Shown here: piece by piece, positions 3,196 to 50,874 of the stretch | Position numbering within the stretch: position 1 is the first letter of the stretch | How the letters are laid out: every line of letters begins with the position of its first letter | DNA from: Candidatus Latescibacterota bacterium | Lineage (GTDB): Bacteria > Latescibacterota > CBDEFO01 | NCBI GenBank assembly: GCA_965237525.1 | Contig: CBDEFO010000006.1 | Span: 64,001-128,000 of the forward strand | Length of the DNA: 64,000 nucleotides | Direction of reading: 5' to 3' | Notes under the pieces: generated by a model | The model's input: the letters and a program-made list of their open reading frames with translations, nothing else | The model's database searches: none | Told to the model about the DNA's origin: nothing | Translations under genes and position numbers: made by a program

Positions 3196-3216
3196 CCCCT
3201 ATTGAATCTATAGGGG
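3196..3216. repeat. 21-bp palindromic element, variant copy
   Basis: CCCCTATTGAATCTATAGGGG, compared with consensus CCCCGATTGAATCTATCGGGG. Confidence 0.75.
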
Positions 3217-3329
3217 AGCGGGGATGGCTCGTCGCCACATCTTGCCCTCCACTGCCATCCGGGTCGGCCACTACATACAAGCTGAAACTCTGATGTTTCT
3301 AGCACGGGTATACTGCCGACAAAAAATAC

Positions 3330-3358
3330 TTGACAGTCGAACTAATATTCGTTAGTAT
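3330..3358 (+). promoter_or_regulatory. Sigma70-type promoter
   Basis: TTGACA (3330-3335), 17 bp spacer, TAGTAT (3353-3358), upstream of the tRNA. Confidence 0.7.
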
Positions 3359-3379
3359 TAGACGTGCCCACAAGAACCA

Positions 3380-3532
3380 CGTGGATGCAATAATAAGGTT
3401 GGGCAGCCCCAAGTTAAGCCTGTGGATATCTTCCTTAAGGCGGTCTGTGAAGCAGAAGACTGTACAGCTTTGGCGTGTGGTAGGCCACTTTTCCCCCGAA
3501 AAGTTCGTTGATGCTTGTTTTTGCACCCCAGG
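3380..3532 (+). ncRNA. Candidate structured RNA with 6S-like rod fold, in the tRNA leader
   Basis: TGCAATAATAAG pairs with CTTGTTTTTGCA. Internal hairpins TTGGG-CAGC-CCCAA and ACTTTTC-CCCC-GAAAAGT; GCCTG/TAGGC stem; apical hairpin. Folded by eye. Confidence 0.35.
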
Positions 3533-3545
3533 AATGACAGCCAAA

Positions 3546-3620
3546 GCGGGAGTAGCTCAGTGGTAGAGCGCGAGCTTCCCAAGCTCGATGTCGCGGGTTC
3601 GATCCCCGTTTCCCGCTCCA
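3546..3620 (+). tRNA. tRNA-Gly (anticodon CCC)
   Basis: GCGGGAG/TTCCCGC acceptor stem; D-arm GCTCAGTGGTAGAGC; anticodon arm CGAGC-TTCCCAA-GCTCG; GGTTCGATCC T-arm; encoded CCA. Confidence 0.97.
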
Positions 3621-3729
3621 TTTTTTCCAGGGACGCCAGGGACAACAGTATAATAGATACATAAGCTTGAGCGCGGTCACAGAAGTTCTTCGGCCGCGCT
3701 TACATATATAAGAATGGATTTGAGAACCT

Positions 3730-5037: not shown

Positions 5038-5305
5038 GGGCTAGGGCACTTCCCCCCGATTGAATCTATCGGGGGTTTACTGCCTCCACTCTCTAACAAA
5101 GCGCCACGACGCCTCGCCCAGTAGTCAGGGAAGAGCGGGCGGAGTCGCTGTCTACAGATCTGTCCCCGATTGAAATTATCGGGGATTGCTTCGGGTTTTC
5201 ACCCCCTCGGAATGACCGAAGGCAAAAACAAGCAACGTCATTGCGCGAGTCCCCGATTGAATCTATCGGGGGTCGGGGAAGCCCAGAGCTCTGCGAAGCA
5301 ATCTC
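5034..5305. repeat. Composite repeat region: GTAG-type REP, GATTGCTTCG/GTCATTGCG-type REP and three 21-bp palindromes
   Basis: Palindromes at 5054-5074, 5164-5184 and 5251-5271. GGATTGCTTCG...GGAATGAC and GTCATTGCG...GAAGCAATCTC arms. Confidence 0.75.
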
Positions 5306-5355
5306 TGCCTGTCTACTTATGTACCTGTCTACTTATGTATAGGATGTAATTCCAA

Positions 5356-6663: not shown

Positions 6664-6702
6664 GGTCTACTTTCGTGTCTGAATTAAAGAGGTGACTCAA
6701 AG

Positions 6703-7686: not shown

Positions 7687-7703
7687 TAGAATAGAAGCAC
7701 ATC

Positions 7704-9337: not shown

Positions 9338-9382
9338 GTAGCCAGCAAAAAGCAGACAGGGAGGAGGAAAAACTATCGTAAT

Positions 9383-9808: not shown

Positions 9809-9832
9809 CAATTTTCCCCGACAAATCTTAAT

Positions 9833-9877
9833 GTAGGGGCGGTGGCCCCCCTTGGGGCGAGCAGACCTCGCCCCTAC
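9833..9877. repeat. GTAG-type REP hairpin
   Basis: GTAGGGGCG...CGCCCCTAC inverted repeat. Confidence 0.7.
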
Positions 9878-14849: not shown

Positions 14850-14956
14850 TGAGATTGCCTTTGTCATACAGGGCAGCACTGCCGCTTTTCTGGGGAGAAA
14901 GCAAGCCCCCGATAGATTCAATCGGGGGCAAGGCACAAAGTGGGCAAAGCAATCTC
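14850..14956. repeat. GAGATTGC...GCAATCTC repeat containing a reversed 21-bp palindrome
   Basis: CCCCGATAGATTCAATCGGGG at 14907-14927, inside inverted GAGATTGC/GCAATCTC arms. Confidence 0.7.
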
Positions 14957-15018
14957 ATTGAGCTGGCCATCAAAGGGGTATCGAAGAACTCTTTGGGTAA
15001 AGAGCAAAGGGGAACTCT

Positions 15019-15786: not shown

Positions 15787-17424
15787 CTACGGTCCTATCT
15801 GGCTCTCATCGAAGCTCTCTGAAGATTCAACCTCAGCGCTGACGGAGTCACTCCTTGCCCTGGATGTCCCACTCACAGCAGTCGGAGCATTCAGAGTAGG
15901 CACCCCACCTGTGTCGATTCTGAGCAGAAGGCCCTCTTCTATTGGATAGTAATCATCTGCCGCTTGAATCAGGTCCCTAGCAGTATTGTGCTGGAAGGAG
16001 AAGATCTCCACCTTGGGTCCTATTGTCTTGACCAGGTTGACCAAAGACACAAAGTCGCCGTCGCCGCTGACTAGAACTACCACATCCAGCTTGTCCACAA
16101 GGCTTATAACATCTATGGCCATACCCATATCCCAGTCCCCTTTGGCCGAGCCATCGCTTCTGAGCCTCAGGTCTTTGCGCTTGACCTGGTAGTTTTTCTG
16201 CTGGAGCATTGTGATAAAGCCGCTTTGATCTACTTCAGGGGATTGGACGACGTAGGCTATGGCCCTTATCAGCCTCCTGTTATCGCTGACTGTCGTGAGG
16301 AGCTTTTCAAAGTCGAGCCTCGAGTTGAACTGTTTTGCCGCGTAGAATATGTTCTGAACATCCACGAAGACGCCGATCCTGTCGACATCACCTTTGGGCC
16401 TTGCAGGTCCACTCACCCCTGCTCCTATCAGCTTTCTGGTTTCGGACTGGAAGACCTGAAGGTCTGATCTGATATCGTCTATGTACTTCTTTACTTCAGC
16501 CTTATAGGTTTTGCCCTGGGCGACATTTTCAGATAAGAGCTTCTTGATCTGGGATATGCTCTGTCCCACAGCCTCTACGAAGCGATTGGGGACGTCGCTC
16601 TTTACATTCTCGTTCCGATTCATTCTTTCCAAACTGTACTGAATCTTCCTGATATCTTTGGTCACCTGGTTAAGAGGCAACAAAGAGTCAGATTTCTCTT
16701 CACTAGTTACAGAATCGTCCAATTTCTTTTTGAGATTGGCGTGCTCACTTTTGAGCGCCGCTTCCCGTTTCAGGCAGGCACTAAGCTCTCTCTGTACGTC
16801 GGTTATCTTCCCTTTTAGCGCACGTCTCTCCTGTGAGAATTGGGCTGTCATTTTCTCCAAATCGGAGTTCTTTCTCCCCAGATCTCCCAACTGGGAGCGG
16901 AGCTTATCTATCTCCTTGGAGAAGTTCTTTTCCCTTTCGCGTCTGTCCAACAGGACATCCTCACCCTCAAGATCGTTATCCTCTATAGATTCGTCTATTT
17001 CCTTGAAGAGTTCATCCTTGAGCAGAGCTTCTGCAAGGTTGTCTATGAGTTCGTTCGCCTCAGGACGGTCGTCTACTGCCAGGGCGAAGAGGTCTCTTCC
17101 AATATTATGATTAGGGCTCTCCATCATACGATCTGCAAGTTTGTCAATTGGCGTTCTGTTTACCTGTCTCACTGTATTGGAGTTAGCCTTTTCCAAAACC
17201 TTTGTAATAGTCTTTGCGTTTTCTTCATCTTCGTAGAACTCATCCACAAGATCTATAATAAGATTTTCCGTAGATATAGATTGTGTGCGGGTCCCATCGT
17301 AGGAAAGAGAACACAGATTACACAGTTTTACAATAGCTTTATGGCTTAAAGAATCCTGCATAATTAGCATCATCAGCGGAGGTTTTATAAATTCGGCTAT
17401 CTTTTTGTGATTGGCTCTAGTCAT
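15787..17424 (-). CDS. NYN (LabA/DUF88) domain protein with long N-terminal helical/coiled-coil region
   Basis: VFVDVQNIFY, KGDWDMGMAID, LVSGDGDF in the C-terminal third; heptad-rich middle. Confidence 0.85.
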   Translation of the reverse strand: MTRANHKKIAEFIKPPLMMLIMQDSLSHKAIVKLCNLCSLSYDGTRTQSISTENLIIDLVDEFYEDEENAKTITKVLEKANSNTVRQVNRTPIDKLADRMMESPNHNIGRDLFALAVDDRPEANELIDNLAEALLKDELFKEIDESIEDNDLEGEDVLLDRREREKNFSKEIDKLRSQLGDLGRKNSDLEKMTAQFSQERRALKGKITDVQRELSACLKREAALKSEHANLKKKLDDSVTSEEKSDSLLPLNQVTKDIRKIQYSLERMNRNENVKSDVPNRFVEAVGQSISQIKKLLSENVAQGKTYKAEVKKYIDDIRSDLQVFQSETRKLIGAGVSGPARPKGDVDRIGVFVDVQNIFYAAKQFNSRLDFEKLLTTVSDNRRLIRAIAYVVQSPEVDQSGFITMLQQKNYQVKRKDLRLRSDGSAKGDWDMGMAIDVISLVDKLDVVVLVSGDGDFVSLVNLVKTIGPKVEIFSFQHNTARDLIQAADDYYPIEEGLLLRIDTGGVPTLNAPTAVSGTSRARSDSVSAEVESSESFDESQIGP

Positions 17425-17451
17425 CTTATTTCTCCTGGTTCTGTCCCCCCA

Positions 17452-17970
17452 TCAAGTGGGGTCCGACATCGCCGACATCGCCGACATCGGATCTGTGCCG
17501 AACTTCTCTTTTAGCTTGCTTTCGATGTAGAGCGGCACGAAATTGCTCACGTCTCCGCCGAATTCTGCCACCTCGCGCACCACCATGGAACTCAAATAGG
17601 TGTACTCCGCACTCGGCATCAGAAAGATGCTCTCAAATTGTGGGTAGAGATTCCTGTTAATCAGAGCCATTTGAAACTCGTACTCAAATTCCGTGACGAC
17701 TCTTAACCCCCGTATTATTATATCGACCCCCCTTTCCTTTGCGTAATCCACAAGGAGGGTGTCGAAACTGTCAACCGAAACCTGATCCCACTTTTTGGTC
17801 GTCTGTTCTATCATGTCCACTCTTTCGTTCACACTGAAGAGCGGCCTTTTGCGAGCGCTTAAAGCTACGCTCACGATAACCTGATCGAAGATCCCTATTG
17901 CGCGCTTGATTACGTCTAAATGTCCGTATGTTATAGGATCGAATGTCCCCGGATAGAGAGCTTTTGCCAA
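17452..17970 (-). CDS. coaD: Phosphopantetheine adenylyltransferase
   Basis: YPGTFDPITYGHLD, IIRGLR..EFEYE, LSS..VRE. Confidence 0.96.
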   Translation of the reverse strand: MAKALYPGTFDPITYGHLDVIKRAIGIFDQVIVSVALSARKRPLFSVNERVDMIEQTTKKWDQVSVDSFDTLLVDYAKERGVDIIIRGLRVVTEFEYEFQMALINRNLYPQFESIFLMPSAEYTYLSSMVVREVAEFGGDVSNFVPLYIESKLKEKFGTDPMSAMSAMSDPT

Positions 17971-17985
17971 ATTCCCTCCTTATTT

Positions 17986-18549
17986 TTAAGTAAATGATAA
18001 TAGTTTTTCCCAAAATACCACTTTTGTATCCCCGTAGACCCTCTCCGAACAGGCTGTGAAGTTGTACGCCTTCTCTGGGAGTTCCTCCCCTTTGGAAGTT
18101 TCGGTCACAATTAGCCCGCCATCTGATAGAAGGTTCCACCTGTCTAACGCTCTTAACACCACCTCAGTCAGAGCCTTTCTGTAGGGCGGATCAGAGAATA
18201 TCAGATCGAACCTGCTACCCGATTGGGAGATCTTTTCCATCGCCCCGAAGCAGCTTGCTCTCCAGACCTGGCAGCTTTCCTCAAAGCCGAGTTTCCCAAG
18301 GTTTTCTTTTATGACTTTGACTAAACTTTCGTTTGAATCTATAAAGAGGGCGCTGTGGGCTCCTCTGGAAAGGGCCTCCATTCCTAAGCTACCCGTCCCG
18401 GCAAAGAGATCCAGCACCTGTGCGTCCTGGACTCTGCTTGCCAGGATGTTGAAGATGGATTCCCTGACCCTGTCGCTCGTCGGACGGACAGAGTTCCGTC
18501 TAATCACCTTCAGCCTGTGTCCTTTGGCTTTTCCGGAGATTATTCGCAT
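17986..18549 (-). CDS. rsmD: 16S rRNA m2G966 methyltransferase
   Basis: MRIISG, RPTSDRVRESIFN, LDLFAGTG, DPPY. Confidence 0.95.
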   Translation of the reverse strand: MRIISGKAKGHRLKVIRRNSVRPTSDRVRESIFNILASRVQDAQVLDLFAGTGSLGMEALSRGAHSALFIDSNESLVKVIKENLGKLGFEESCQVWRASCFGAMEKISQSGSRFDLIFSDPPYRKALTEVVLRALDRWNLLSDGGLIVTETSKGEELPEKAYNFTACSERVYGDTKVVFWEKLLSFT

Positions 18550-18706
18550 GAGCGTATTCTGTGTCTAAAGAGAAAATAGACGCCACAGCTCCAATATAAA
18601 AGAATTAGATACCCGAAGTCAATAATTTTAATTCTATAAAGCCCTATTCGGAAACGTAAGGTCCAAGTTTTGCCTGGAGGTAAGAACTTGTCTCAACGTA
18701 GTATCT

Positions 18707-20611
18707 TCAGGGCAGACACGCGGATCTGCCGCTACTACAGTCTGATGATCTCCGGCAGACCACATCCATCGTGATCTCTGTGATCTCTTCTATTATCCTG
18801 GAGGATAGAACTTGAGCCTCTTGCTTAATCTTATAAAGATCACCCTCTTTTGCCCCCACTGCTGAAGGGGAATAGACGCTGATATAGTATTTGATTTTAG
18901 GCTCCGTGCCTGATGGCCTAGCCGCAAGGCTTGTCCTTCCGTCTTGGGAGAGATTGAAGATCAAAAGATTACCTGCTGGCTTTTCGATAGTTCGAAGTGT
19001 CCTCCCTGAGTCGGGATCGAAGGCTTTCCCGGTCAGATAGTCCCTGATCTGGCGTACCTTCAGTCTGGCAATCTTCTTGGGGGGATCACTGCGTAATCTT
19101 TTCATCACTTCCAAGATTAGATAGTTACCTTCTGCCCCCTCAAGGAAGATATTTTTCACTGCGTTTTCGTAATAACCGTATTTCGTGTAGATTTCATCCA
19201 AAAGTTGATGCGGGGTCCTGCCCTCTTTTTTCAACTGTGCGGTCAACTCCACCATCAGCATCGCCGCTACAGTTCCGTCCTTATCGCGAGCATACGTCCC
19301 CTTTAAGAATCCGATGCTCTCCTCCGTTCCGAAGATGAAGCGTCCAGGATCGTCAAGTTCCCTTATGACTTGGGCGATGTGTTTGAACCCCACAAGCAGA
19401 TTGCCCTCGACCTGGATTCCAAAACTTCTGGATATGTGCGAAATTAGCTCGGTCGTCACCAGGGTCTTGACTATCAGGCCATCTTTGCGAAGCTCGCCTG
19501 ATGCCTTTTGCTGACTCAGGATAAAATAGGTCAAAAGGGCGCCGATCTGGTTGCCGTCCAGTATCTTCCACTCATCTTTATGGGGTAGAATCGGGGCGGC
19601 TGACGCCATCCGGTCGGCGTCAGGATCGTTGGCAAGCACAATATCGGCCTTCCTGCTTTTGGCTTCCTCTATGGCAAATTCTAGAGACGATGGCTCTTCA
19701 GGGTTCGGCCTACTGTTAGCCACTCCCGAAAAGTCTCCGTCGGGGTCTGCCTGTTCGGAGACGATATAGAGGTCTTTGTCGTAGCCGAGGCGACGAAGCA
19801 CCGGCACGGTAGAAGTAATACCGACTCCGTTAAGAGGCGTATAGACTATACCCACATCGCCTTCGTGGGTAAGTGCCTCGTCCAAGACAGCCGACAGATA
19901 CTGCTGGTCAATATCATCTCCAAGCTGGCTTAAGAGCCCCCGTTCTTTAGCTTCCGAAATGCTGACGCGCTTAATCTCTCGGACATCTGACACCGCATCT
20001 ATGATCTTTTCCTCATGCGGTGGGACTATCTGCCCTCCGTCGGACCAGTAGACCTTAATTCCATTGTCCCTGGGAGGATTGTGAGACGCTGAGATTACGA
20101 TTCCGACGTCGGCGTGCAGTTCTCTGACTGCAAAAGACAGCTCGGGAGTCGAACGAAAGTCCGGAAAAAGATGGACAAAGATGCTGTTGGCGGTCAGCAC
20201 CTCTGCAACTATCAGGGCGAACTCTTTTGAATGGTGACGGACATCGTAGGCTATTACGGCCCTGTAGTGTTCGTCTCTTTTCTTTATCTTCAAGGAAAGT
20301 AGATAGTCAGAAAGTCCCTGGGCTGACTCGCCGATAGTCTGCGGATTGATGCGATTCGTCCCCACTCCCATGGGGCCCCGCCGCCCACCTGTCCCGAACG
20401 GGATGATCGTGTGGAAGCGGTCGTTCAGACCGGAGAACTGTTCCTCTTCGATCAAAAGACGCAGGTCATCGTCGTGGAACTCCAAAAATCTTCCGGACTC
20501 AAGCCAGTTCTTAAGATTTTCAAGCGCAACCGGCGTGAGTTCCTGAGCTTTAGGCGATTCAACAACTTTCCTTAGAAGATCTGCACCTTCCAGATCGCCA
20601 CTTTTCGACAT
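18707..20611 (-). CDS. Phospho-sugar mutase (PGM/PMM family)
   Basis: FGTGGRRG, ISASHNP, DPDADR, RPSGTEPKIK. Confidence 0.94.
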   Translation of the reverse strand: MSKSGDLEGADLLRKVVESPKAQELTPVALENLKNWLESGRFLEFHDDDLRLLIEEEQFSGLNDRFHTIIPFGTGGRRGPMGVGTNRINPQTIGESAQGLSDYLLSLKIKKRDEHYRAVIAYDVRHHSKEFALIVAEVLTANSIFVHLFPDFRSTPELSFAVRELHADVGIVISASHNPPRDNGIKVYWSDGGQIVPPHEEKIIDAVSDVREIKRVSISEAKERGLLSQLGDDIDQQYLSAVLDEALTHEGDVGIVYTPLNGVGITSTVPVLRRLGYDKDLYIVSEQADPDGDFSGVANSRPNPEEPSSLEFAIEEAKSRKADIVLANDPDADRMASAAPILPHKDEWKILDGNQIGALLTYFILSQQKASGELRKDGLIVKTLVTTELISHISRSFGIQVEGNLLVGFKHIAQVIRELDDPGRFIFGTEESIGFLKGTYARDKDGTVAAMLMVELTAQLKKEGRTPHQLLDEIYTKYGYYENAVKNIFLEGAEGNYLILEVMKRLRSDPPKKIARLKVRQIRDYLTGKAFDPDSGRTLRTIEKPAGNLLIFNLSQDGRTSLAARPSGTEPKIKYYISVYSPSAVGAKEGDLYKIKQEAQVLSSRIIEEITEITMDVVCRRSSDCSSGRSACLP

Positions 20612-20729
20612 CGTCCTGCCTTTCCTTTTTTGACCGACTCCTTAAGGATTTGAAGACCGAATATTGGGTCAACTTTAAAAATAGTCTCTTGTGGAGAGCA
20701 GAGCAAGTCCTTTTTGCAGAGAATAAACC

Positions 20730-20772
20730 AAAAAAGGGGCTGACCGGCGCGAATAACCGGTCAACCCCTTTC
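20730..20772 (-). terminator. Intrinsic terminator downstream of the CHRD gene
   Basis: AAGGGGCTGACCGG...CCGGTCAACCCCTT hairpin, followed by a T-run on the minus strand. Confidence 0.7.
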
Positions 20773-20794
20773 CGCTGCTCACTGTTGCACGAAC

Positions 20795-21694
20795 TTACTC
20801 AATAGAATCTTTGATTTTGCCCCACGTAGAAGGTTCTACTGCTGTATCCTCTATAGGGGTTGTGGCGAGGACTTGACCTCTGATTTCTCCCGGTGGGTTG
20901 TCACCTGTATGGATATTGACGTAGATATCGCCTGCCAGAAGTTCATCCACTAAAAGAGGCGCGGCATCTGTGCTGCTCCAGACCCCGGATATGGTGTTTC
21001 CAGAGATCTCACCCGCTGAAAAACCGCGGACGACGCCACCTGCCACACCCGCCGGAGCCATGTGGAAATGGGCGGCAGTTATTGGACCGCTCAGATCTGT
21101 GACAGTGATGCGGAACGTCAACTCTGTCTCATCGTCATTGAGCGTAAACGAGCCTGTCCCAGTCGGATTGAGGCCCTCAGGAATTGCAGGAGCAGGAACC
21201 GCCTGATCTACATCCACTATAGCTGTGAAGCCGATGCCTGTAGTGGCCAGGACCTGACCTCTGATTTCACCCGGTGGGTTGTCGCCCGTATGGATGTTGA
21301 CGTAGATATCACCTGCCAGAAGTTCAGCCACTAAAAGAGGGGCAGCGTCTGCGCTGCTCCAGACCCCGGATATGGTGTTTCCAGAGACCTCATCCGCTGA
21401 AAAGCCGCGGACGACGCCACCTGCCACACCCGCCGAAGCCATGTGGAAATGGCCGGCGGTCATTGGACCGCTCAGGTCTGTGACAGTGATGTGGAATGTC
21501 AACTCTGTCTCGTCGTCATTCAGCGTAAACGAGCCTGTTCCGGTCGGATTGAGGCCCTCAGGAATTTCAGGAGCGGGAATCTCCTGATCTACATCCACCA
21601 CGGCCGTAAAGTGAGTATGAGCATAGCCGATGCCTTGCAGCGATAATAGAGCACACATTACAGAAAACGACAAAACTGAAAATGTTTTTATCAT
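20795..21694 (-). CDS. Secreted protein with two near-identical CHRD domains and a C-terminal 'AVEPSTWGKIK' tail
   Basis: Signal peptide; two 127-aa repeats containing HFH and YVNIHT..NP.GEIRGQ. Confidence 0.88.
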   Translation of the reverse strand: MIKTFSVLSFSVMCALLSLQGIGYAHTHFTAVVDVDQEIPAPEIPEGLNPTGTGSFTLNDDETELTFHITVTDLSGPMTAGHFHMASAGVAGGVVRGFSADEVSGNTISGVWSSADAAPLLVAELLAGDIYVNIHTGDNPPGEIRGQVLATTGIGFTAIVDVDQAVPAPAIPEGLNPTGTGSFTLNDDETELTFRITVTDLSGPITAAHFHMAPAGVAGGVVRGFSAGEISGNTISGVWSSTDAAPLLVDELLAGDIYVNIHTGDNPPGEIRGQVLATTPIEDTAVEPSTWGKIKDSIE

Positions 21695-24079: not shown

Positions 24080-25433
24080 TTAGAGTTCCTCTTTACTCTC
24101 CGCAATGTCATCCAATGCTCTTCTTGCCTTGGTCCCAGGTGGGCCATCGGGATCAAGTTCGATGGCCTTCTCATACTTTTCGATTGCCTCATCGCTGTCC
24201 CCTTGGGAATGAGACACTTCACCCCAACTGTAATAAGCTGTGGCAAATTGTGGATCGAGTTCGATAGCCTGCTGAAACTTTTGAGTTGCCTCTTCGTGCT
24301 TCCCCTGTTTATACAGCGCAACGCCCCAGTTGTTGTATGTATCTACATATTTTGAGTCCAGATGGGCGGCCTTCTGAAACTTTTGAATTGCCCCCTGATA
24401 ATCCCCTTGATTGGCAAGGGCATTTCCCCAGTTGTTGTACGCATCTACATATCTGGGGTCCAGATCGGTGGCCTTCTTATACTTTTCAATTGCCCCCTCA
24501 TTATCCCCCCGGTCCTGCAGTGCAAGACCCCAGTTGTAGTATGCATGGGCATATTCTGGATCCAGTTCGATGGCCTTCTTAAACTTTTCAATTGCCCCAT
24601 TATTATCCCCCTGGTTGGCCAACGTACTGCCCCACTTGTAGTATGCAGAGGCATCTTTTGGATCCAGATCAGTACCCTGCTGAAACTTTTCAATTGCCTC
24701 CTCATTTTCACCCTGCTCGGACAATACATCGCCCCAGTTGTTGTATGCCTCGGCATATTGTGGGTCGACTTCGACAGTTTTCTTAAACTTGTCAATTGCC
24801 CCGTCATTATCCCCCTGGTTGGCCAACGCATTGCCCCAGTTATTATATGCAGGAGCAGATTTCGGATCAAGTTCGATGGCCTTCTTATACTTGTCAATTG
24901 CTTGTCCGTGTTTCCCCTGTTTGTTTAAGATTTGACCCCAGTTGTTATATGCAGGAGTAAAGTTTGCGTCAACTTGAATAGCCTTTCTATATTTGGCAAT
25001 TGCCTCTTTGACTTTGCCCTGTCTTTCTAATTCAAAGCCCAAGTCGTTAAGTGCCTGGGCAGATTTGGGGTTGCGTTTGATAACGCTTTTAAACTTGTCT
25101 AACGGCCCCTCGGGTTCTGTTTGTTCAACTAACTTGCCATTTGGGTTGAGTTCGGCATCTTTCTGAGACGTGCCAATCGTCCTATGCTGTTTTCTCAAGT
25201 AATACAACGCAATGCCCCAAATGAGAACAAATAATACGATGACAAATACTATAACTCCCGTATTAAGTATCTTTTCGAGAAGGATGTCCCAACCGGTATC
25301 TCCCTCTTCCTCAAGTTGTTCAGGTACCTCGAGAGGGTTCTGTCAGTAGAGTGTCTCCCTCGGACTGTACAAGGGCGACAGAGGCTGATAGAGCCACGAG
25401 ACACATAGTAGTTATAAGCTTAAGGATAACCAT
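24080..25433 (-). pseudogene. Membrane-anchored TPR protein, frameshifted near 25335 (TPR part 24080-25207 intact)
   Basis: About nine AYNNWG-type TPR repeats. A signal-like frame from ATG 25433 joins the TM-containing frame if one base is removed. Confidence 0.7.
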
Positions 25434-29252: not shown

Positions 29253-31130
29253 TTAATTTGATTCTCCTCTCAATTCATCAATTGCTTTTCTTGCATCAGT
29301 GGCCAGTTCCCCGTCAGGATCGAGTTCGATGACCTTTTGAGACTTTTGAATTGCCCCGTTTTTATCCCCTTTGGCACGCAACACTTCGCCCCAGCTTAAG
29401 TACGCTATGTCACATTTTGGGTCGAGATCGATAGCCTTCTTAAACTTAGCAATTGCCTCCTCGTATCTTCCCAAGCGATACAACACCTTGCCCCAGTTGT
29501 TGTATGCATCGGCATTTTGGGGGTCGAGTTCGATGGCTTTCTCATACTTGAAAATTGCACCCTCATAATCCTCCTGAAGGGCCAACGCAACGCCCCAGCT
29601 GACGTATCCATAGGCATCTACTGGGTCGAGTTCGATGGCTTTCTCATGCTTGAAAATTGCACCCTCATAATCCTTCTGAAGGACCAACACGTCCCCCCAC
29701 ATGCGGTATGCTTTGGCATATCCTGGATCGAGTTCGATGGCTTTCTCATACTTGGCAATTGGCCCTTCATAATCCTTCTGAAGGGCCAACGTAACGCCCC
29801 AGCTGCTGTAGTATATAATGGCATTTTTTGGATCGAGTTTTATGGCTTTCTTACACTTGGAATTTACCTTCTTGAATTTTCCAATTGCCTTCTTGTCTTT
29901 TCCCTGTTCAGCTAACATAAGGCCCCAGCTATAGTACACCCAGACAGATTTTGGATCGAGTTTTATGGCTTTCTTATACTTGGCAATTGCCTTCTTGTAT
30001 TTTCTCTGGTTACCTAATGCATCGCCCCAGTTGTGGTATGCAGGGGCAAATTTTGACTCGAGTTCAGTAGCCTCCTGATATTTGTCAATTGACTCATCGT
30101 AATTTTTCTGTTCATCCAACGCAAGGCCCCACAGGTTGTACGCCCAGGGGCGGTCTTTATCTGGACCATATCGAAGAATGTGTTGTATGGTCTCAAGACA
30201 GGCTTTTCTGTCAATATCATATAGATACGACGCTAAAATGTAAGGTTGAGTATATTTGTATATGTGTTTCGCAGCTTTAAACAGAATTTTATCCAGATTT
30301 TCTAACTTGCCGGCCATGGTCTTGGCGGGCTCTCCACTAACACGGGTTGTTACATAGAGCGAATCACTTTGCACAACCACTTCGCCAACGAGTCGGGCAG
30401 CAACGTGTCCGAAAAGCTCCTTGATATGTAGAGGGAAAAACTTCAAGGAGATACCAGCCACTGCTAATTCCATCTGGGGCGGTGTCTGGGGCAAGTCGAT
30501 ACGGAATTTCCGGCCTTCCAAACTGCTGGTTGCGGTGGTTGCCATTGTATATATGAGGTTGAGTTGGTCAATTAATCTGTTTGTAATGGCCCGACCGGTA
30601 TAGCCCTTTTCCTCAAGTTCTTTAGGTACCTCAAAAGGCTCTATCAGCACAGTGTCTCTCTTTGCCTCTAAATAGATGAAAGTACCAGCGAAAACAAGCA
30701 ATAAAAGAAAAAGGGTCAAAACTGCTATACTAACTCCATTTTTGACAATGTAGTTGAGTCCCTTAAATATGTATTGAAGGAAAGACTTCAGAGAGCTACC
30801 CGCCTCTGGACCTTCGGTTTTGGGTAATGTACGAAGCGAGTCCGCAGTGTGTCGACCGGTGTCTCCCTTTTCGGAAAGTTGTTGAGGTACATCAAGAGGC
30901 TCTGTCAGCACAGTGTCTATCTTTAACTCTGTGGGAGATGTCTGAGGCGGGTCCACAGTGGCCCAAATGGTATCACCTTTTACCTCAAGATTTTGAGGTG
31001 TTTCAAGAGGTTTTGTCAGTACACTATCGCCCTTTAACTCTGCACAAGCTACAGAAGTTGATACGATCAAAACAAGGACAATCAGTACACTGCAATGTCG
31101 ACTATGTCCAGCCATGTACCGGTACCTCAT
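29253..31130 (-). CDS. Membrane-anchored TPR repeat protein
   Basis: Signal peptide, TM helix, IEPFEVPKELEEKGYTG segment, about eight TPR repeats. Confidence 0.85.
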   Translation of the reverse strand: MRYRYMAGHSRHCSVLIVLVLIVSTSVACAELKGDSVLTKPLETPQNLEVKGDTIWATVDPPQTSPTELKIDTVLTEPLDVPQQLSEKGDTGRHTADSLRTLPKTEGPEAGSSLKSFLQYIFKGLNYIVKNGVSIAVLTLFLLLLVFAGTFIYLEAKRDTVLIEPFEVPKELEEKGYTGRAITNRLIDQLNLIYTMATTATSSLEGRKFRIDLPQTPPQMELAVAGISLKFFPLHIKELFGHVAARLVGEVVVQSDSLYVTTRVSGEPAKTMAGKLENLDKILFKAAKHIYKYTQPYILASYLYDIDRKACLETIQHILRYGPDKDRPWAYNLWGLALDEQKNYDESIDKYQEATELESKFAPAYHNWGDALGNQRKYKKAIAKYKKAIKLDPKSVWVYYSWGLMLAEQGKDKKAIGKFKKVNSKCKKAIKLDPKNAIIYYSSWGVTLALQKDYEGPIAKYEKAIELDPGYAKAYRMWGDVLVLQKDYEGAIFKHEKAIELDPVDAYGYVSWGVALALQEDYEGAIFKYEKAIELDPQNADAYNNWGKVLYRLGRYEEAIAKFKKAIDLDPKCDIAYLSWGEVLRAKGDKNGAIQKSQKVIELDPDGELATDARKAIDELRGESN

Positions 31131-35170: not shown

Positions 35171-35282
35171 GCATCCACTATACATAAGGGGACGGTAGCC
35201 CCAGATTAGAACCTATCGGGGACTACCGGGAATAGACAGGACGCATCTTCTTCTGCCTCCTGTAAGCAAAAGGGGAATAAAG

Positions 35283-35480: not shown

Positions 35481-35573
35481 CGTAGACAGTAGCCCCCGAT
35501 CCCCGATAGACTCAATCGGGGGTAGACAGTAGACAGGCCACCTCACTCCTCCCTGTCTTCTCAAACAGTTATC

Positions 35574-37218: not shown

Positions 37219-37400
37219 TAACAAGTGGATTGCAAAGAGTGGACAGCAGACGTGGGAAGGAGGGATATGCCCTGGGAGGGATATGCCCTGTCTGTTGTCT
37301 GTGGGATAGCTTCGCCGACTTCGTGGATTGCTGCCGCCCAAGCAAAGCGACCAAGCCACCTCAGGATGACGATTTTAGGGAGCTTTTATGACACTGCCCT

Positions 37401-37469
37401 GTAGGGGCGAACCCATGTGTTCGCCCAATTTACCCGGATTTGATGGCAGATACGTGGGTCTGCCCCTAC
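37401..37469. repeat. GTAG-type REP doublet
   Basis: GTAGGGGCGAACCCATGTGTTCGCCC ... GGCAGATACGTGGGTCTGCCCCTAC. Confidence 0.8.
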
Positions 37470-37975
37470 ACATGGAGGACTTCTTTTGACTTTTGCCTTT
37501 GCAAGGACACTTCGTGCTCCGCTACCTCAACCTCACTTTCCCTAACACACCGCCGACGGCGGCTCGCCCAAGATAGTTTCTTATCTGCTATCAAAAATAC
37601 CAGGTAAGTTGGCGGAGTGGATGTTCTGTGCGGCGTCGAACTCATCTTCGTTTGACGCTGCAAACAGGAGCGTTCCGAGGGTCAGATCCAGATTGGTCTT
37701 TAGAGAATAGGTAGCCTGAACTCCGTGAAAGACGCCCCCATCCTGCAGATTGATCACGCCGTACTCCTCCCCTCTCCAAAGGGGCGTAATATCCTTGACA
37801 CGCTGAATCCACTGTAGTCTACCGCAAGATTGGAAACATCGCCCCGATTGAGTCTATCGGGGCTTACAAGCTCCTGCCAGCGGTACTCGTCCTTATCCCG
37901 TTCGCCACTAACGTTGTAGCAGCACTCCAACATAATGCAGAGTCCATCGAAAATGTGTAGTCCCTACCGGTTGAA

Positions 37976-39739: not shown

Positions 39740-41062
39740 CTATTGTGTCCTGCCGAAGTTATCCAGAAAGATCACAAAGTCGGACAGACCAATCTCCCCG
39801 TTACCATCCAAATCGAATATAGAATTAGCTGGAGTAGCCGTCCCCCCGAACACATCCAGAAAACGCACAAAATCAGAGAGATCTACTTCATTATTCCCGT
39901 CGAAATCTCCTGCAATGCCAGGGAGATCAACCGTGCGGGAAAGGTTCAACAACACTGACACAGTATTGCTGCGATTATTAGTCACAGCCAAGTCATTATC
40001 TCCATCGCCATCTAAATCCGTGCTGAAAACTGAACTAGGATTAGACCCTGCGGCATAGTCCACGTGAGGTACAAATGTCCCATCTCCATTATTGAACAGC
40101 ACTGATACGTTAGCGCTAAACCTGTTAGCCGCAACTAAGTCATTATCTCCATCGCCATCTAAATCCGTGCTGAAAACTGAAGTAGGATTAGACCCTGCGG
40201 CATAGTCCACTCTACGCGCAAATGTCCCATCTCCGTTATTTAACAAGACGGATACATTGTTGCTGTTAGAATTCGCCGTAGCTATGTCATTGGCACCATC
40301 GCCATTTAAGTCAGTACTGAAAACTGACAAGGGATCTACTCCGACCCCATAGTCCACTCCGGGTGCAAAGTGCGCATTGCCATTATTCAACAGCACTGAG
40401 ACAGTGTTGCTTCTCCAATTCGCCACAGCTAAGTCATTATCTCCATCGACATCTAAATCCGTGCTGAAAACTGAAAACGGATCAATCCCAACAGGATAGT
40501 CCACCTTAGTGGCAAATTGCCCATCTCCATTATTTAAGAGCACTGACACAGTATCGCTGAACCGATTAGCCACAGCCAGGTCATTATCCCCATCGCCATC
40601 TAAATCCGCAATGAAAAGTGATACCGGCCACTGCCCGGTATCATAGAACACGGGAAGTGCAAACTGCCCATCTCCGTTATTCAACAACACCGATACATTA
40701 TCGCTGCCAAAATTAGTCACAGCTATGTCGTTATCCCCATCCATATCCAAATCCGCGATGAAAAGTGACTGGGGATTGATCCCGGTTTCATAGTCCATCT
40801 TAGATGCGAATTGCCCGTCTCCATTATTCAGGAGCACTGACACGCTGCTATTGATGTACTTTCTTAAGTCGCGATCAAAGGATCCCCAATTCGCTACAGC
40901 CAGGTCCTTGTCCCTATCTCCATCTAAATCCGCGATGAAAAGTGATTCGGGACTATCCCCGGTAGGATAGTTGGTAGCAGGTCCAAAACGATCCTCCGCA
41001 TAGGTGGCCGCATTCAAGGCGACTAACAGCACGAAAGCAGCATAGAGGTTTATCTGATTCAT
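39740..41062 (-). CDS. Secreted FG-GAP/VCBS repeat protein with C-terminal double EF-hand (dockerin-like) tail
   Basis: Signal peptide from MNQINL; seven DLDGDGDNDLAVAN-type repeats; GDFDGNNEVDLSDF and FDLDGNGEIGLSDF. Confidence 0.88.
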   Translation of the reverse strand: MNQINLYAAFVLLVALNAATYAEDRFGPATNYPTGDSPESLFIADLDGDRDKDLAVANWGSFDRDLRKYINSSVSVLLNNGDGQFASKMDYETGINPQSLFIADLDMDGDNDIAVTNFGSDNVSVLLNNGDGQFALPVFYDTGQWPVSLFIADLDGDGDNDLAVANRFSDTVSVLLNNGDGQFATKVDYPVGIDPFSVFSTDLDVDGDNDLAVANWRSNTVSVLLNNGNAHFAPGVDYGVGVDPLSVFSTDLNGDGANDIATANSNSNNVSVLLNNGDGTFARRVDYAAGSNPTSVFSTDLDGDGDNDLVAANRFSANVSVLFNNGDGTFVPHVDYAAGSNPSSVFSTDLDGDGDNDLAVTNNRSNTVSVLLNLSRTVDLPGIAGDFDGNNEVDLSDFVRFLDVFGGTATPANSIFDLDGNGEIGLSDFVIFLDNFGRTQ

Positions 41063-41251
41063 TTTAGGTCTTCTCCCCTTCGGAGTCCATCCAAGCCTTG
41101 GCAAATTCGCGTCACTTTCCATATGTGAATCGAGTAAGAATATACCTTCTACTGACGCCAAAATCAAGATAATCCCTCAATTTTTTTGTTGCGAAAGCCG
41201 AAATTTGTAGTATATTATATATCTTACCCACAGTTAGGCGGTGATGGACTT

Positions 41252-42451: not shown

Positions 42452-42530
42452 CATACAGTGAACGGGGAGGGGTGAAGTGCCCCTGTCTACTGTGTACTGT
42501 CTACTGTCTACTTAAACAAGAGGTGCTACC

Positions 42531-43118
42531 TTGAAGATTACTCCTTTGGACATAAGGAAGCAGGAGTTTAGAAAGGCCCTCCGCGGGTTCGATAAAGAAG
42601 AGGTTATGGCCTTTTTAGAGATAGTCGCAGACGAGTTTGAAAGACTAAATCAAGAGAACGCCACCCTTCAAGAAGGCGCGAGTGTCCTCGAGTCGGCCAT
42701 CGAAGAGTACAGGAAGATGGAAAAGACCCTTCAAGAGACCCTGCTTACGGCTCAAGCTACGTCAGAGGAGACGCGGCAGAACGCAAAAAAAGAGGCGGAA
42801 CTGATAGTTAAAGAGGCCCAGGGAGAAGCCCAAGATATTATCAAAAAGTCCGAACACAAAGGGAACGAATTGATAGATGAAGCCGAGGAAAAAGCAAGGA
42901 AAATCGAAAGAGAAGGCGCGGATATTGAAACTAAACTCGAAAGGGACATTATGGAGCTTAAGCGATATAGAAACTCCCTTACGGCCAAGTTAAAGTCCCA
43001 TCTGAGCGGTCAATTAGAACTTTTAGAATCTAACTTCAATGACGAACAGGGAATGGAGACTCTCACCGAACCTACGGACGAAGTGTCCTTAACTGAAGCC
43101 CAAGACGAAGAGACATGA
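42531..43118 (+). CDS. divIVA: DivIVA domain protein
   Basis: ITPLDIRKQEF.KALRGFDKEEV..FL plus coiled coil; TTG start after GAGGTG. Confidence 0.9.
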   Translation: MKITPLDIRKQEFRKALRGFDKEEVMAFLEIVADEFERLNQENATLQEGASVLESAIEEYRKMEKTLQETLLTAQATSEETRQNAKKEAELIVKEAQGEAQDIIKKSEHKGNELIDEAEEKARKIEREGADIETKLERDIMELKRYRNSLTAKLKSHLSGQLELLESNFNDEQGMETLTEPTDEVSLTEAQDEET

Positions 43119-43384
43119 CCGCCCCAATAAGGCTGAACGTAAAGGTTCTGCCACGTTCTTCAAGGGATCAAATCGTAGGGAAGGACAAAGACGGAACTTT
43201 GAAAATTAAGGTCACCGCTCCTCCGAGGGATGGCAAGGCAAACAGCAAAGTCCTAAACTTGCTTTCCAAAGAGCTGAATATCCCAAAATCGAAGATCTCC
43301 ATAGTATCGGGTCAAAATAGCCGCGACAAAGTTATAGAGATAGTAGGGGCGAGGTTCCCTCGCCCAGTAGACAGCAAACAGTAG
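43115..43384 (+). CDS. yggU: DUF167 / YggU protein
   Basis: VKVLPRSS, APPRDGKAN, IVSGQNSRDK. Confidence 0.9.
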   Translation: MTAPIRLNVKVLPRSSRDQIVGKDKDGTLKIKVTAPPRDGKANSKVLNLLSKELNIPKSKISIVSGQNSRDKVIEIVGARFPRPVDSKQ

Positions 43385-43411
43385 AGAGTAGACAGGGAAA
43401 GGCAAAAGACA

Positions 43412-44470: not shown

Positions 44471-44471
44471 G

Positions 44472-44795: not shown

Positions 44796-45196
44796 ACTTG
44801 ACAACTACTTTCAGGAAGTAAAGCTACGTTGATCACAAGTGATATAATCCAAAGTTACGATATAATAAAGGAGAGACTTACTGCAACAGACGGTTTTTTA
44901 AGAGTCAGAGCAAATCTCATAAATAGCGATTTGATAGAGTTTTCCGAGTATTGTATTGCTGAAGGTGGTGAGGTAAGGACCCCCGAATCAGAATTGAGTA
45001 CACCTTTCATTGGCAGGACTCAAAAGGCAATATTATAAAACGTTGGGATAACGCCCCGGATCACCCAGGACTTCATAATTTCCCGTATCATATCCATAAT
45101 GGAAGTGATGAAAATGTCCTCCCCCATCAGATGCTTAATAAGCAAACTTTGTCCTTAATAGATAGTATGGAAAACCAATATCGTGGCAAGCGTTGA
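44779..45196 (+). pseudogene. DUF6516 (TumE-like) toxin, frameshifted twice
   Basis: YTFHWQDSKG..IKRWDNAPDHP.L.NFPYHIH lies in a different frame from the N-terminal pieces; shifts near 44829 and 44995. Confidence 0.65.
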
Positions 45197-45244
45197 TGAG
45201 ATCGCTTATAACATACTTAATCGCAAGGTAACGAGGAACCACAG

Positions 45245-48200: not shown

Positions 48201-48424
48201 ATAGAATAAAGATCAAATATAGATCAAGCGACAAATTCAAAAGTGCAATAGCGAACTTTGGGGAGTATATAAAGACTGAAACACTATGCATAAATTTGGA
48301 AGCCTGTGACGTACACGGATTGGGCGCCCCACAGAAGGTGGGCGCCCCACCTTGCGGGGATTCGGTCCAAAAGGAAAACGTAAATGGGCAAGACGTAATA
48401 ATCTCTGTAGAGCGCATCTTGTAG
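45245..48424 (+). CDS. ileS: Isoleucine--tRNA ligase, type 2 (eukaryote-like)
   Basis: DGPITAN, GFDCQGL, WTTTPWTL, GTGIVHIAP, DWCISKKRYWG; 1059 aa. Confidence 0.97.
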   Translation: MFKELPGELDFPKMERRILKFWSQTDAFNKLREKNRGNKRFSFLDGPITANNPMGVHHAWGRTYKDIFQRYKAMQGCDQRYQNGFDCQGLWVEVEVEKELGFNSKLDIEKYGIANFVQKCKERVRKYAAIQTQESVRLGYWMDWDNSYYTMSDKNNYSIWHFLKKCHQNGWIYKGTDVMPWCPRCGTALSEHEIVTEGYKEIAHRSPYVKFTLKDRPNEHLLVWTTTPWTLTSNVAAAVHPEMTYVKVKQGDDYYYLARSRLDASIDGDFKVVEEMPGRKLSGLTYSGPFDDLPRQNGVEHRVIAWKEVSETEGTGIVHIAPGCGKEDFALSKEHDLEVIAPLDEFGNYIAGFEWLVDKNAQDTSEKIIEDLQKRGILYKVEDYTHRYPVCWRCDSELVFRLVDEWFIYMDELRYKIMDVSKKIRWIPDFGLERELDWLKNMHDWCISKKRYWGLALPIYECDCGHFDVIGSKEELEERAVGGWEDFEGNSPHRPWVDAVVIECRRCKKKVSRIKDVGNPWLDAGIVAYSTLNYRGDREYWDRWFPADFITESFAGQFRNWFYSLLAMSTVLENREPFRTVLGHAQVRDERSEEMHKSKGNAIWFKDAAEKMGVDVMRWIFSLQNPVINLNFGYSAGDDAKRELLTLWNTVKFFITYANLDKYDPKRESPPVDQRHLLDRWIISKLNLLIFDSVKSMDDYNTASVVRGARDFIDELSNWYVRRSRRRFWKSENDTDKLAAYTTLYESISTLSKILAPVLPFLSEEIYQSAVRFDNGNIPESVHHCEYPRPDESLIEADLMDQMRAAIRVTGLGRSIRNNTQLKIRQPLSEFLIVFKDEATTDGLGNLEGIVKDELNVKEIKILDDPVDLVRYSIKPNFSALGPKYGNLMPKIKAALESVDGSDAVDRLKSGSDIQIEVGGEKITITPEEAEVEISPREGMAVAEDQSFLVALDTRLSDGLISEGFAREFVHKVQNMRKACDFEVSDRIKIKYRSSDKFKSAIANFGEYIKTETLCINLEACDVHGLGAPQKVGAPPCGDSVQKENVNGQDVIISVERIL

Positions 48425-48571
48425 TCTTTAACAGAACAAGTAGAGAGTGGACAGAGAGCCTCTCTATTGGCTGTACGTTATCAATTTGTAGACTATCCAT
48501 TCAACATTAACAGAAAGGGGAAGGGCATTCCCTCTGCCAACTAAAGCAGACAGTTTTTACGCCCAGTCTTT

Positions 48572-48943
48572 ATGAACAAGAAACACCTGCAACACTTCAA
48601 AGAGCTCCTAATAGCCAGAAAGAACGAAATAACCGAACAGTTGGGAGCCATGGAAGACTCCGTAAAGGGAAACGCCAGAGACTCCTCAGCGGACCAATCT
48701 TCGTATTCCTGGCACATGGCTGACCAGGGCACAGATGCAATGAAAAAAGAAATGACCTCGCACTTCGTGTCGCTGGACGGCAACTACCTGCACCATTTGG
48801 AGCAGGCGCTCGAACGGATAGAAGAGGGGACCTTCGGAGCATGTGTAGTATGCGGCCAGGAAATTGGCAAAGACAGGCTCGAAGTTGTCGCTCACACCAC
48901 CAAGTGTATAAAGTGCAAATCTGAGGAGGAAAAAAGTAGATAG
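48572..48943 (+). CDS. dksA: TraR/DksA C4 zinc-finger protein
   Basis: HMADQGTD, ALERIEEGTFGACVVC...CIKC. Confidence 0.88.
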   Translation: MNKKHLQHFKELLIARKNEITEQLGAMEDSVKGNARDSSADQSSYSWHMADQGTDAMKKEMTSHFVSLDGNYLHHLEQALERIEEGTFGACVVCGQEIGKDRLEVVAHTTKCIKCKSEEEKSR

Positions 48944-49115
48944 TAGGGGCAATCCCAATCATCAGTGGACAGGGAGATGTCGCAACTAGCCACGAAGTGG
49001 GACGGGTGGGGCGGCTGATGGCAACAACCTGTGAAGTGATCCGCCCGATCTATCCGTATTGTAGGGCATACACGCGAGTCTTCCCCTACTACACGCTATC
49101 TACTGTCTACTTGCC

Positions 49116-49649
49116 ATGAGGGAAAAAGCAGAAAATATATCAGACGCTTTCTGGGTCTTTTTGGCAACGCTTATTTTGGATCAGCTGTCCAAAGTAATCG
49201 TCTCAAAGTATATGAGACCCGGTGATTCGATTAGCGTCATCGGGGACCTTTTCAAACTCACCTACGTCTATAACGAGGGGGCCGCCTTCGGATTGTCCCT
49301 TGGAGGAAATACCGTACACATCGTCTTGTCGGCCTTTGCCATAATCTTCGTATGTTTTCTGATATGGCGCCCCACAACGGATCGAGGCACCACCCAAATA
49401 GCGCTCTCTATGATCCTAGGCGGCGCCTTGGGCAATTTGATAGACAGGATCAGACTCTCAAGAGTTATTGACTTTCTGGATGTAGGCATAAACGATGTAA
49501 GATGGTACATCTTTAATATGGCCGATATGTGGGTCACAGCGGGCGTTATCCTCCTGGCCGCCGTTTACTTTGTAAGGAAGGACGTGGAGGATGGGGAAAA
49601 AAACAGAGCTCCAAGTATCAAAGAACCAGTGCAGAGGGATACGACTTGA
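49116..49649 (+). CDS. lspA: Lipoprotein signal peptidase II
   Basis: DQLSK, NEGAAFG, GGALGNLIDR, VIDF, FNMAD. Confidence 0.95.
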   Translation: MREKAENISDAFWVFLATLILDQLSKVIVSKYMRPGDSISVIGDLFKLTYVYNEGAAFGLSLGGNTVHIVLSAFAIIFVCFLIWRPTTDRGTTQIALSMILGGALGNLIDRIRLSRVIDFLDVGINDVRWYIFNMADMWVTAGVILLAAVYFVRKDVEDGEKNRAPSIKEPVQRDTT

Positions 49650-50583
49650 CGTATTCCTGTCAGAAAGCGATTTGAGCATTTCCCGCTCCCAAATCAAGAA
49701 ACTGATCAAAGACGGATCTGTTGAGGTAAATAACGCTCAGATCAAAAAGCCCAGCTGGGCTGTACAACCCGAAGACATAATATCAGTTGAGATCCCAGAT
49801 CCCACAGCCTACAATCTGACTCCAGAGGCAATCCCTCTGGATATTTTGTTTGAGGACGAAGACCTCGTAGTAGTCAACAAACCGGCAGGGATGATCACAC
49901 ACCCTGCTTCAGGTTTCTACACCGGCACTCTGGTCAACGCCCTTTTATACCACTGCCGAGACCTGTCAGGCATAAATGGCGTGCTGCGGCCCGGAATCGT
50001 CCACCGGCTGGACAAGGACACATCAGGTCTTTTGATGGTGGCAAAGAACGACCGCGCCCACATCTGCATTTCAGAACAGCTTAAAGAAAGATCCATCACG
50101 AGGAAATACAGGGCATTTGTGTGGGGAAAGATAAGCTCCTATCAGTCAAATAGGATCGAAGCTCCCATAGGTCGTCACAGGAAAGAGCGGACGAGAATGT
50201 CTGTGATGGGGGCAGATTCCTCCAAATACGCAGCCACAAGGTTCCATATCGAAAATGAGTTCGATTTTATTTCCTTAGTCACCGCAGAGCTTGAAACGGG
50301 AAGGACGCATCAAATAAGAGTCCACTTTTCCTTTATAGGTCACCCCATATTTGGAGACCCTCTCTATGGTGGCAGAGAGAAAAAGGTAAAGGGGATCGCC
50401 TCCAAATTTCAACTTGACGCCCGAAGGTTGCTCAAGTTAATGCCTCGTCAAGCCCTCCACGCACAGACTTTAGGATTTGTCCACCCAAGGACAAAGAGGC
50501 AGCTTTCTTTCTCGTCGGATATGCCTGAGGATATGAGGGCACTGCAGAAGACAATAGAGAGCAGCCCCCATAGGTTCAATTAG
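49591..50583 (+). CDS. rluD: RluD-family 23S rRNA pseudouridine synthase
   Basis: S4 domain, VVNKPAG, HRLDKDTSG, TGRTHQIRVH, QALHA. Confidence 0.93.
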   Translation: MGKKTELQVSKNQCRGIRLDVFLSESDLSISRSQIKKLIKDGSVEVNNAQIKKPSWAVQPEDIISVEIPDPTAYNLTPEAIPLDILFEDEDLVVVNKPAGMITHPASGFYTGTLVNALLYHCRDLSGINGVLRPGIVHRLDKDTSGLLMVAKNDRAHICISEQLKERSITRKYRAFVWGKISSYQSNRIEAPIGRHRKERTRMSVMGADSSKYAATRFHIENEFDFISLVTAELETGRTHQIRVHFSFIGHPIFGDPLYGGREKKVKGIASKFQLDARRLLKLMPRQALHAQTLGFVHPRTKRQLSFSSDMPEDMRALQKTIESSPHRFN

Positions 50584-50874
50584 AGATAGACTCAATCGGA
50601 GGTGGACAGGGCAGCACCTCCCATAGCCGAATGTAGGGCTGCGTTATCCATCCCCTACATCTTGTTACCCTGTCAGTTAAGTGTTTTCCCTGCTGTTTCG
50701 TGTTGTTCCCTAACTCTTTATTTATTTAGGCTAACAACCCTTCATCTTTTATGGTGTTTCTTGGCTTTTCACGGTGTTTTTGCTTGTTCCAGTAGAAAAA
50801 CAGTAGAAGTTTGTTAGAAAAGTAAAGGTAAAATTTCCCAGGACTATTCAGTGATCTCAGAAGTGTTGGTTGGG

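Follow-up and report, generated by a model that had tools for sequence, protein, structure and literature searches.

The stretch of DNA analysed here, 64,000 nucleotides (nt) of a Candidatus Latescibacterota genome (contig CBDEFO010000006.1, forward-strand positions 64,001 to 128,000; hereafter the window), is dotted with copies of a short hairpin-forming palindrome. A first-pass annotation, made from the letters alone, had listed these copies as a scattered 21-bp family and had read them as a very short self-propagating element. Matching of the 21-mer at up to 3 mismatches recovered seven separate sites, at 3196, 5054, 5164, 5251 and 37842 on the plus strand and at 14907 and 35501 on the minus strand (Table 1), and none of 100 shuffles yielded any match. 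The degenerate copies listed at 35199 and 50566-50602 are visible as well, though they exceed 3 mismatches. As annotated, the copies at 5251 and 14907 are nested in another repeat family, of the CGTC type; that at 5164 adjoins such a repeat, and those at 3196 and 35501 sit inside older copies of the hairpin itself.

The motif search was extended to the whole genome (G000: 4.58 Mb in 8 contigs, 49% GC), allowing 4 mismatches and using two local shuffles as control. It returned 603 copies (117, 196, 151, 88 and 51 with 0, 1, 2, 3 and 4 mismatches, respectively), the shuffled sequences giving 2 and 1; orientation was balanced (286 plus, 307 minus, 10 tied). The bases immediately outside the 21-mer form a closing pair that is Watson-Crick in 474 copies, against 281 expected, and mainly T..A (288) or C..G (183). 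Because this pair covaries, the palindrome stands as annotated but its length does not: the unit is a 23-nt hairpin, Y-CCCCGA-NTGNNNCTA-TCGGGG-R, reaching 27 nt where a 5′ CCTG tail is present. Tandem copies spaced 27 nt occur, and the tail is polar in a second sample (G031, 309 kb selected around known matches to the hairpin), with 15 left and no right occurrences among 60 copies. Covariation is also seen at stem pair 5:17, with 41 double changes for 3.6 expected, and whole subfamilies carry them: A:T in 32 copies and T:A in 9, four of the latter in the same compound context as the window copy at 3196, which belongs to this group. The paired G>T / C>A change reported for the 3196 copy is real and, being shared by a nine-copy subfamily, was inherited and does not represent a fresh compensation; one further change breaks the stem in its orthologue in G001, the congener used for comparison. 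The remaining stem pairs show 0-1 double changes each, which is the chance level.

With a stem of 7-8 bp and a loop of 7-9 nt, intact copies fold as DNA hairpins at -5.6 to -8.1 kcal/mol. The strand on which copies are transcribed is unbiased (197:185) and G.T mismatches (79) are not in excess over A.C mismatches (75), which argues that the constraint acts on DNA and not on RNA. An Rfam scan matched nothing but a tRNA. Assembly breaks at hairpin copies were seen in Logan contigs of four runs. G000 also has a sister hairpin of 17 nt, which shares these arms and has a spacer of 5 nt; its 24 perfect-arm copies are often nested with the 21-mer.

The empty and filled sites that the annotation proposed to look for were found in G001, a single contig of 4.54 Mb with 94-96% identity to G000, of which 2.4 Mb was compared. 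Testing 600 G000 copies yielded 187 strict orthologues, 116 of them shared, 68 empty in G001 and 3 other; in the opposite direction, 234 G001 copies yielded 141 strict orthologues (116 shared, 21 empty in G000, 4 other). The 68 empty sites include repeats of one junction in an insertion sequence (IS) of the IS3-like type and of one in a MITE, a miniature transposable element with inverted repeats, and reduce to 44 after collapsing. The window copies at 5054, 5164 and 35501 are among those missing from G001. Where a host consensus exists, empty copies of the MITE and of the IS3-like element give the polarity as insertion. These empty orthologous sites leave little doubt that the hairpin is mobile; the autonomy implied by "self-propagating" is not borne out, and the term must be taken to mean a non-autonomous element, some of whose copy number reflects hitchhiking inside the MITE and the IS3-like element. 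In G000, stems are intact in 31/44 lineage-specific copies and in 58/116 shared ones (p=0.02), which agrees with a picture, drawn from the covariation, in which variants with an intact stem would spread and copies already in place would decay, the hairpin being required for movement and not for residence.

The MITE offers a closer view. It is about 273 bp long, ends in inverted repeats, encloses a CGTC-type pair, is itself present or absent between the two genomes, and has been invaded twice by the hairpin. Of its 50 copies in G000, 35 are filled at site 1; the examined part of G001 has 21 copies, of which 7 are filled. Among 20 G001 copies checked, 7 had a G000 orthologue: 5 were filled only in G000, 1 in both genomes and 1 in neither. 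In two pairs, rare markers lying 10-16 nt away from the junction were kept, and in a third pair a marker between both sites was kept. Nearly all inserts in the G000 MITEs are of one variant and one orientation, which suggests short-patch conversion among paralogues, in either direction; two G001 copies carrying other variants, reversed at the same site, point to independent insertion as well.

The junctions carry a sharp signature. Filled/empty pairs were retained when the net gain was at least 14 nt, with at most 9 unmatched bases per side and flank identity of at least 86%. From 930 copies, 46 clean junction types were obtained, and dropping five (MITE site 2 and IS3 repeats) left 41 independent events. 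The net gain was 15 nt in 1 event, 17 in 2, 18 in 4, 19 in 14, 20 in 10, 21 in 1, 26 in 2, 27 in 6 and 29 in 1. Two modes are apparent, 17-21 nt (31/41) and 26-27 nt (8/41), and no event falls at 22-25 nt; net 23 is empty despite a query that, having been built with the 23-mer taken out, was biased toward exactly that length. In the 19-20 nt class, the 23-mer takes the place of a 3-4 nt target core. In the 26-27 nt class, a CCTG/CAGG tail foreign to the target is present with little or no target loss, or else 3-4 bases are duplicated. For the 19-20 nt class, CG is present in the lost core of 11 of 24 events (background 11-16%); a purine stands at -1 in 23 of 24, and in 8 this base differs from the empty allele, always as a purine.

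Direct repeats around the 23-mer were counted in 352 non-nested copies: 25 copies have 4-bp repeats (permutation mean 3.6, maximum 10), 32 have 3-bp repeats (mean 9.9, maximum 19) and none has 5-bp repeats. A fixed target duplication around the 21-mer was rejected. At 151 repeat-free sites, outward flank positions 1 to 4 are 83% pyrimidine, neutral, 74% purine and 71% purine, and the profile is flat beyond; the flank bias thus spans exactly 4 nt. An apparent excess of long donor flanks at repeat-free sites proved to be mostly residual host repeats and paralogues and was not used. The preferred targets are NCGA-like cores and other hairpin repeats: after collapsing, 265 of 541 sites have a CGTC-type, GTAG-type or heptamer motif no more than 40 nt away (background 520/3000), and 189 are nested in the hairpin itself. 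This junction signature is new in that it was not found in the literature searched.

Copies also enter genes. With 3770 genes called in G000 by our own gene caller (77% coding), 86 of the 603 copies lie inside open reading frames (ORFs) and 25 on ORF edges; those that are coding translate as SPIESIGD, SPIDSIGD, PRLNLSG or PDRFNRG. The net gain is divisible by 3 in 8/8 polymorphic events in coding interiors (7/7 when a duplicated contig is removed) and in 14/53 of the other polymorphic events, as expected of a reading-frame filter (p=3e-4). Pfam names were obtained for 12 of 14 G001 proteins scanned, which were either hosts or empty orthologues of G000 hosts, and include SecA, SMC, AcrB, MeaB, phosphosugar mutase and a MutS/Smr protein of the MutS2 type. 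Alignment of the phosphosugar mutase with PDB entry 1wqa places a 7-residue gap exactly at the hairpin element, which again gives the polarity as insertion, and in the MeaB alignment 4+3 gap residues surround it. By eye only, two carrier loci in Deltaproteobacteria resemble RelA/SpoT.

Besides the hairpin, the window holds at least three further small repeat families and several unrelated genes (Table 1). The ORFs with 102-nt and 147-nt repeat periods, whose arrays differ in G001, are ones that we take to be TPR-like and FG-GAP-like. Genome-wide, the tetranucleotide CTAG is strongly under-represented (ratio 0.27) and GTAG/CTAC is over-represented (ratio 1.33), one 21-nt palindrome occurs 133 times and one 15-nt palindrome 52 times. 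The near-identical gene block duplicated between two contigs probably reflects two strains or haplotypes in the assembly.

Table 1. Positions of hairpin copies and of other features; window coordinates unless a G000 contig (C) is given.
Position	Strand	Feature	State in G001
3196..3216	+	Hairpin copy, T5:A17 subfamily; sits inside an older copy that is degenerate (compound ~3183-3223)	Present
5053..5075	+	Exact core, C..G closing pair	Within a missing segment (junction not clean)
5163..5185	+	Two loop changes, T..A closing pair; edge of a CGTC-type repeat	Absent
5251..5271	+	Exact core in a CGTC-type repeat (~5237-5306)	Present, 7-nt right-arm difference
14907..14927	-	Exact core in a degenerate CGTC-type repeat (~14850-14958)	Present, 9-nt insert
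35199..35221	+	Degenerate 23-nt copy, >3 mismatches	Another copy nested in it
35501..35521	-	In a segment of 40 bp made up of part of an older copy and GTAGACAG heptamer-type units	Segment absent
37842..37862	+	One loop change; atypical yet complementary G..C closing pair	Present
50566..50602	-	Degenerate doublet, >3 mismatches, folding lost (z = 0.94)	Present
C4:159457, C8:1311261		MITE copies (examples)	
3330-3358		Sigma-70-like site	
3546-3617		tRNA gene, downstream of the sigma-70-like site	
25954-27354		DUF772/DDE transposase gene, unrelated to the hairpin	
61523-62923		Second 466-aa frame; 5′ region 99% identical to the DUF772/DDE gene	
24080-25207, 29253-31130, 39740-41167		ORFs with 102-nt and 147-nt repeat periods	Arrays differ
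37390-37470, 42481-43397, 54919-55024		GTAG-type repeat pair, GTAGACA heptamer inverted arrays, CAATTCAC-type inverted array	
C2 ~16000-21600, C4 ~546000-551500		Near-identical duplicated gene block	
C4:479836-480159		107-aa stand-alone GIY-YIG gene, tightly flanked by an inverted CGTC-type pair	Absent among GIY-YIG matches

Within the phylum of the window (168 genomes), G000 (272) and G001 (235) are the only genomes rich in the pattern, a third having one stray match. Among the matches listed for the exact 21-mer are groundwater-type metagenome-assembled genomes (MAGs) of Deltaproteobacteria, a MAG from Thermodesulfobacteriota and, perhaps through misbinning, one archaeal contig of 3.5 kb. 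The family is present in 16 of 61 genomes around G031 and in 7 viral stretches, and the CCTG-tailed form in at least 123 metagenome stretches. In G031, 15 of 60 copies are complete CGTC-type repetitive extragenic palindromes (REPs) built around the hairpin core (GTCAY-stem-loop, many with an ATCCA tail), and 10 copies, judged by eye, lie in the arm of a CGTC-type REP with the same tail-less replacement junction. We infer that the element is the freed core of a long-loop CGTC-type REP. At three metagenome loci (L227, L245 and L267) the hairpin is nested in other CCTG-led hairpins, which suggests a wider CCTG-tagged class.

The annotation had seen no cognate transposase in the window, and none was found genome-wide among the families tested. 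Reverse transcriptase (PF00078) and four-helix-bundle (PF05635) profiles gave no match in G000. The Y1 or GIY-YIG gene flanked by the motif that had been envisaged did not materialise in G000: the Y1 profile (PF01797) gave no match, and the one stand-alone GIY-YIG gene (PF01541) has ordinary CGTC repeats, not the hairpin, on its flanks. In five other carriers PF01541 matched long UvrC-sized frames only, PF13366 was found in one of the five and PF04480 in two. The IS3-like carrier aside, gene families show no enrichment next to copies. A recurrent nuclease-like neighbour was looked for in 87 loci from viruses and metagenomes, in 20 loci of G031, among shared small proteins and at dense hairpin clusters, and none was seen. 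The stand-alone GIY-YIG gene of G000 is a candidate partner of the CGTC REPs, a link that the literature search did not turn up.

The account that we tentatively put first is that a tagged, single-stranded hairpin may be pasted at nicks 3-4 nt apart by a trans-acting enzyme. A non-coding 23-nt DNA hairpin, or 27 nt with its 5′ CCTG tail, would move as a folded single strand into a target whose nicks, offset by 3-4 nt, would be made in trans by some nuclease or strand-transferase. In one outcome the tail-less hairpin would replace 3-4 target bases; in the other the full 27-mer would enter and either leave the target as it was or duplicate 3-4 bp of it. Short-patch conversion would then fill paralogous empty sites. 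Several observations weigh against this account. No enzyme was identified among the families and neighbourhoods searched. The intact-stem difference is missing in G001 (11/21 lineage-specific versus 61/116 shared copies, p=1.0), and the tail is less polar in G000 than in G031 (31:4 of 462 copies, or 33:14 of 603). A stricter, messier orthologue set contains one net-22 and one net-25 event, together with many events of 12-16 and >30 nt that arise from nesting. With the genomes 4-6% apart, some junction differences must be later mutations, and three direct-repeat events with a known empty allele, as well as the MITE conversions, could be gain or loss. The single-stranded intermediate, the staggered nicks and the short-patch conversion are best taken as deductions and not as observed steps.

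Movement with no dedicated enzyme, in which short hairpin-protected single strands, using microhomology of 1-4 nt, would pair with DNA at replication forks or act as primers for template switching and gene conversion would do the remainder, strikes us as rather unlikely. It would fit the failure of our searches to find a mobiliser, the resemblance of the YC..GR element ends to TCGA/NCGA targets (the CG-containing cores above), the 5 of 7 orthologous MITE pairs that differ by the insert alone, as conversion from paralogues predicts, and the self-nested copies, whose arms are often corrected to perfect inverted repeats. Plain annealing, however, gives no reason to expect that net gains of 22-25 are missing, that the flank window is sharp at 4 nt, that repeats of 4 bp but none of 5 bp occur, or that a CCTG tail foreign to the target comes along.

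More doubtful still is a REP-associated tyrosine transposase (RAYT) of the HUH (Y1) type, which would move the hairpin as a REP with CCTG as the guide tetranucleotide, its gene being lost, transient or too diverged. In PMC8266576 and PMC3333891, HUH cleavage is guided by a tag and IS200/605 elements insert without target repeats. A 5′ tetranucleotide followed by an imperfect hairpin fits that scheme, and like the GTAG REPs, their REPIN doublets and the bacterial interspersed mosaic elements (BIMEs) served by RAYTs, the hairpin reaches ~600 copies per genome and is a likely single-strand substrate. GTAG-type REPs do occur in G000, and Deltaproteobacteria-type carriers have 1-10 Y1 matches each. 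Yet PF01797 gives no match in single-contig G001, as in G000, and tblastn with five Y1 proteins gave a best E of 0.036, although both lineages gained copies; none of 10 Y1 loci examined in other carriers has the hairpin within flanks of up to 1.5 kb. The junctions lose target or duplicate 3-4 bp, and this enrichment of short repeats departs from the IS200/605 pattern as PMC3333891 gives it. The GTAG foot is rare, with 7 left GTAGY and 16 right RCTAC among 462 copies, in a genome rich in GTAGACA heptamer arrays.

Type II topoisomerases cut staggered by 4 nt. A swap of the hairpin by subunit exchange of such an enzyme would match the 4-nt geometry of repeats, flanks and cores, and a universal enzyme would account for activity in two phyla; gyrase binding and cleavage of E. 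coli BIME-2 is cited in PMC3333891. We nevertheless regard it as improbable, as the flanks have no 10-11 bp GC periodicity (amplitude 0.008, control mean 0.008) and the tail-less replacement class is left unexplained. A transcription-factor operator, or an RNA terminator or stabiliser kept by selection, agrees with a density ~20-fold higher in non-coding DNA and with 123 gene-end distances <40 nt, but is very improbable and as an origin largely refuted by the polymorphic presence of copies, those in ORFs, the lack of strand or G.U bias and of an Rfam match and, for the operator, by the under-use of divergent spacers (68/489, p=0.006) and broad distances to gene starts, although single copies may have been put to secondary use. 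The outcomes named beforehand as fatal to a mobile element were not seen: copies are many, empty sites exist, and the position relative to promoters is not fixed.

PMC3733652 distinguishes GTAG from CGTC REPs, mentions copies inside genes as well as Rickettsia palindromic elements (RPEs), and gives the CGTC REPs no dedicated transposase. Like the CGTC REPs, the hairpin is a short high-copy palindrome with intragenic copies and no dedicated transposase found. By the same paper it is nonetheless set apart, though the consensus figures of the paper may bear on membership: the CGTC REP has an unpaired CGTC/TGTC tag at one end, an 8-9 bp stem and a 4-5 nt loop, against a loop of 7-11 nt in the hairpin; its CCA tail has a TCCA-like counterpart in only 18 of 462 G000 copies; and the GTCAY tag is found in 1 of those 462, against 15 of 60 copies in G031. 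CGTC REPs form head-to-head dimers, whereas hairpin copies are mostly single or nested and their tag, if present, is CCTG. RPEs, as PMC3733652 describes them, are likewise palindromes in frame within functional genes, but the hairpin is much shorter (6-9 codons), belongs to free-living lineages in two phyla and has a variable junction length filtered by the reading frame. With MITEs mobilised by DDE transposases it shares non-autonomy, inverted-repeat bounds and, in some copies, short target repeats; these elements measure 70-300 bp in PMC3733652, against 23-27 nt, and the hairpin has no constant target duplication, 31 of 41 events losing target bases. A match between the hairpin arms and an IS end of G000 was not noticed, no systematic search having been made.

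The annotation had thought the mobilising mechanism possibly undescribed; the REP/RPE-like kind of palindrome is known, and it is the junction chemistry that looks undescribed. The hairpin is a very small variant of REP/RPE-like repeats that fails the tag, loop and RAYT comparisons. The literature searched, which leaves most subscription papers outside its coverage, holds no description of the hairpin family or of a CCTG-tagged class. A bolder proposal, possible but on the whole doubtful, is that with this element a third class of minimal mobile hairpins, tagged with CCTG, has its first mapped member, the class being common to unrelated subsurface and sediment phyla. Such a class would use an undescribed 4-nt staggered swap chemistry performed by a host enzyme, parasitise REPs, MITEs and itself, use short-patch conversion to home into empty sites in paralogues, and introduce new peptides of 6-9 residues into housekeeping proteins.

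A pair of genomes 94-96% alike supplies dozens of before/after junctions with a sharp two-mode signature, and this set turns mobility into a testable question of cut geometry and target choice. In size the hairpin comes close to the least that a mobile sequence could have; it occurs across phyla and supplies conserved enzymes with short extra peptides.

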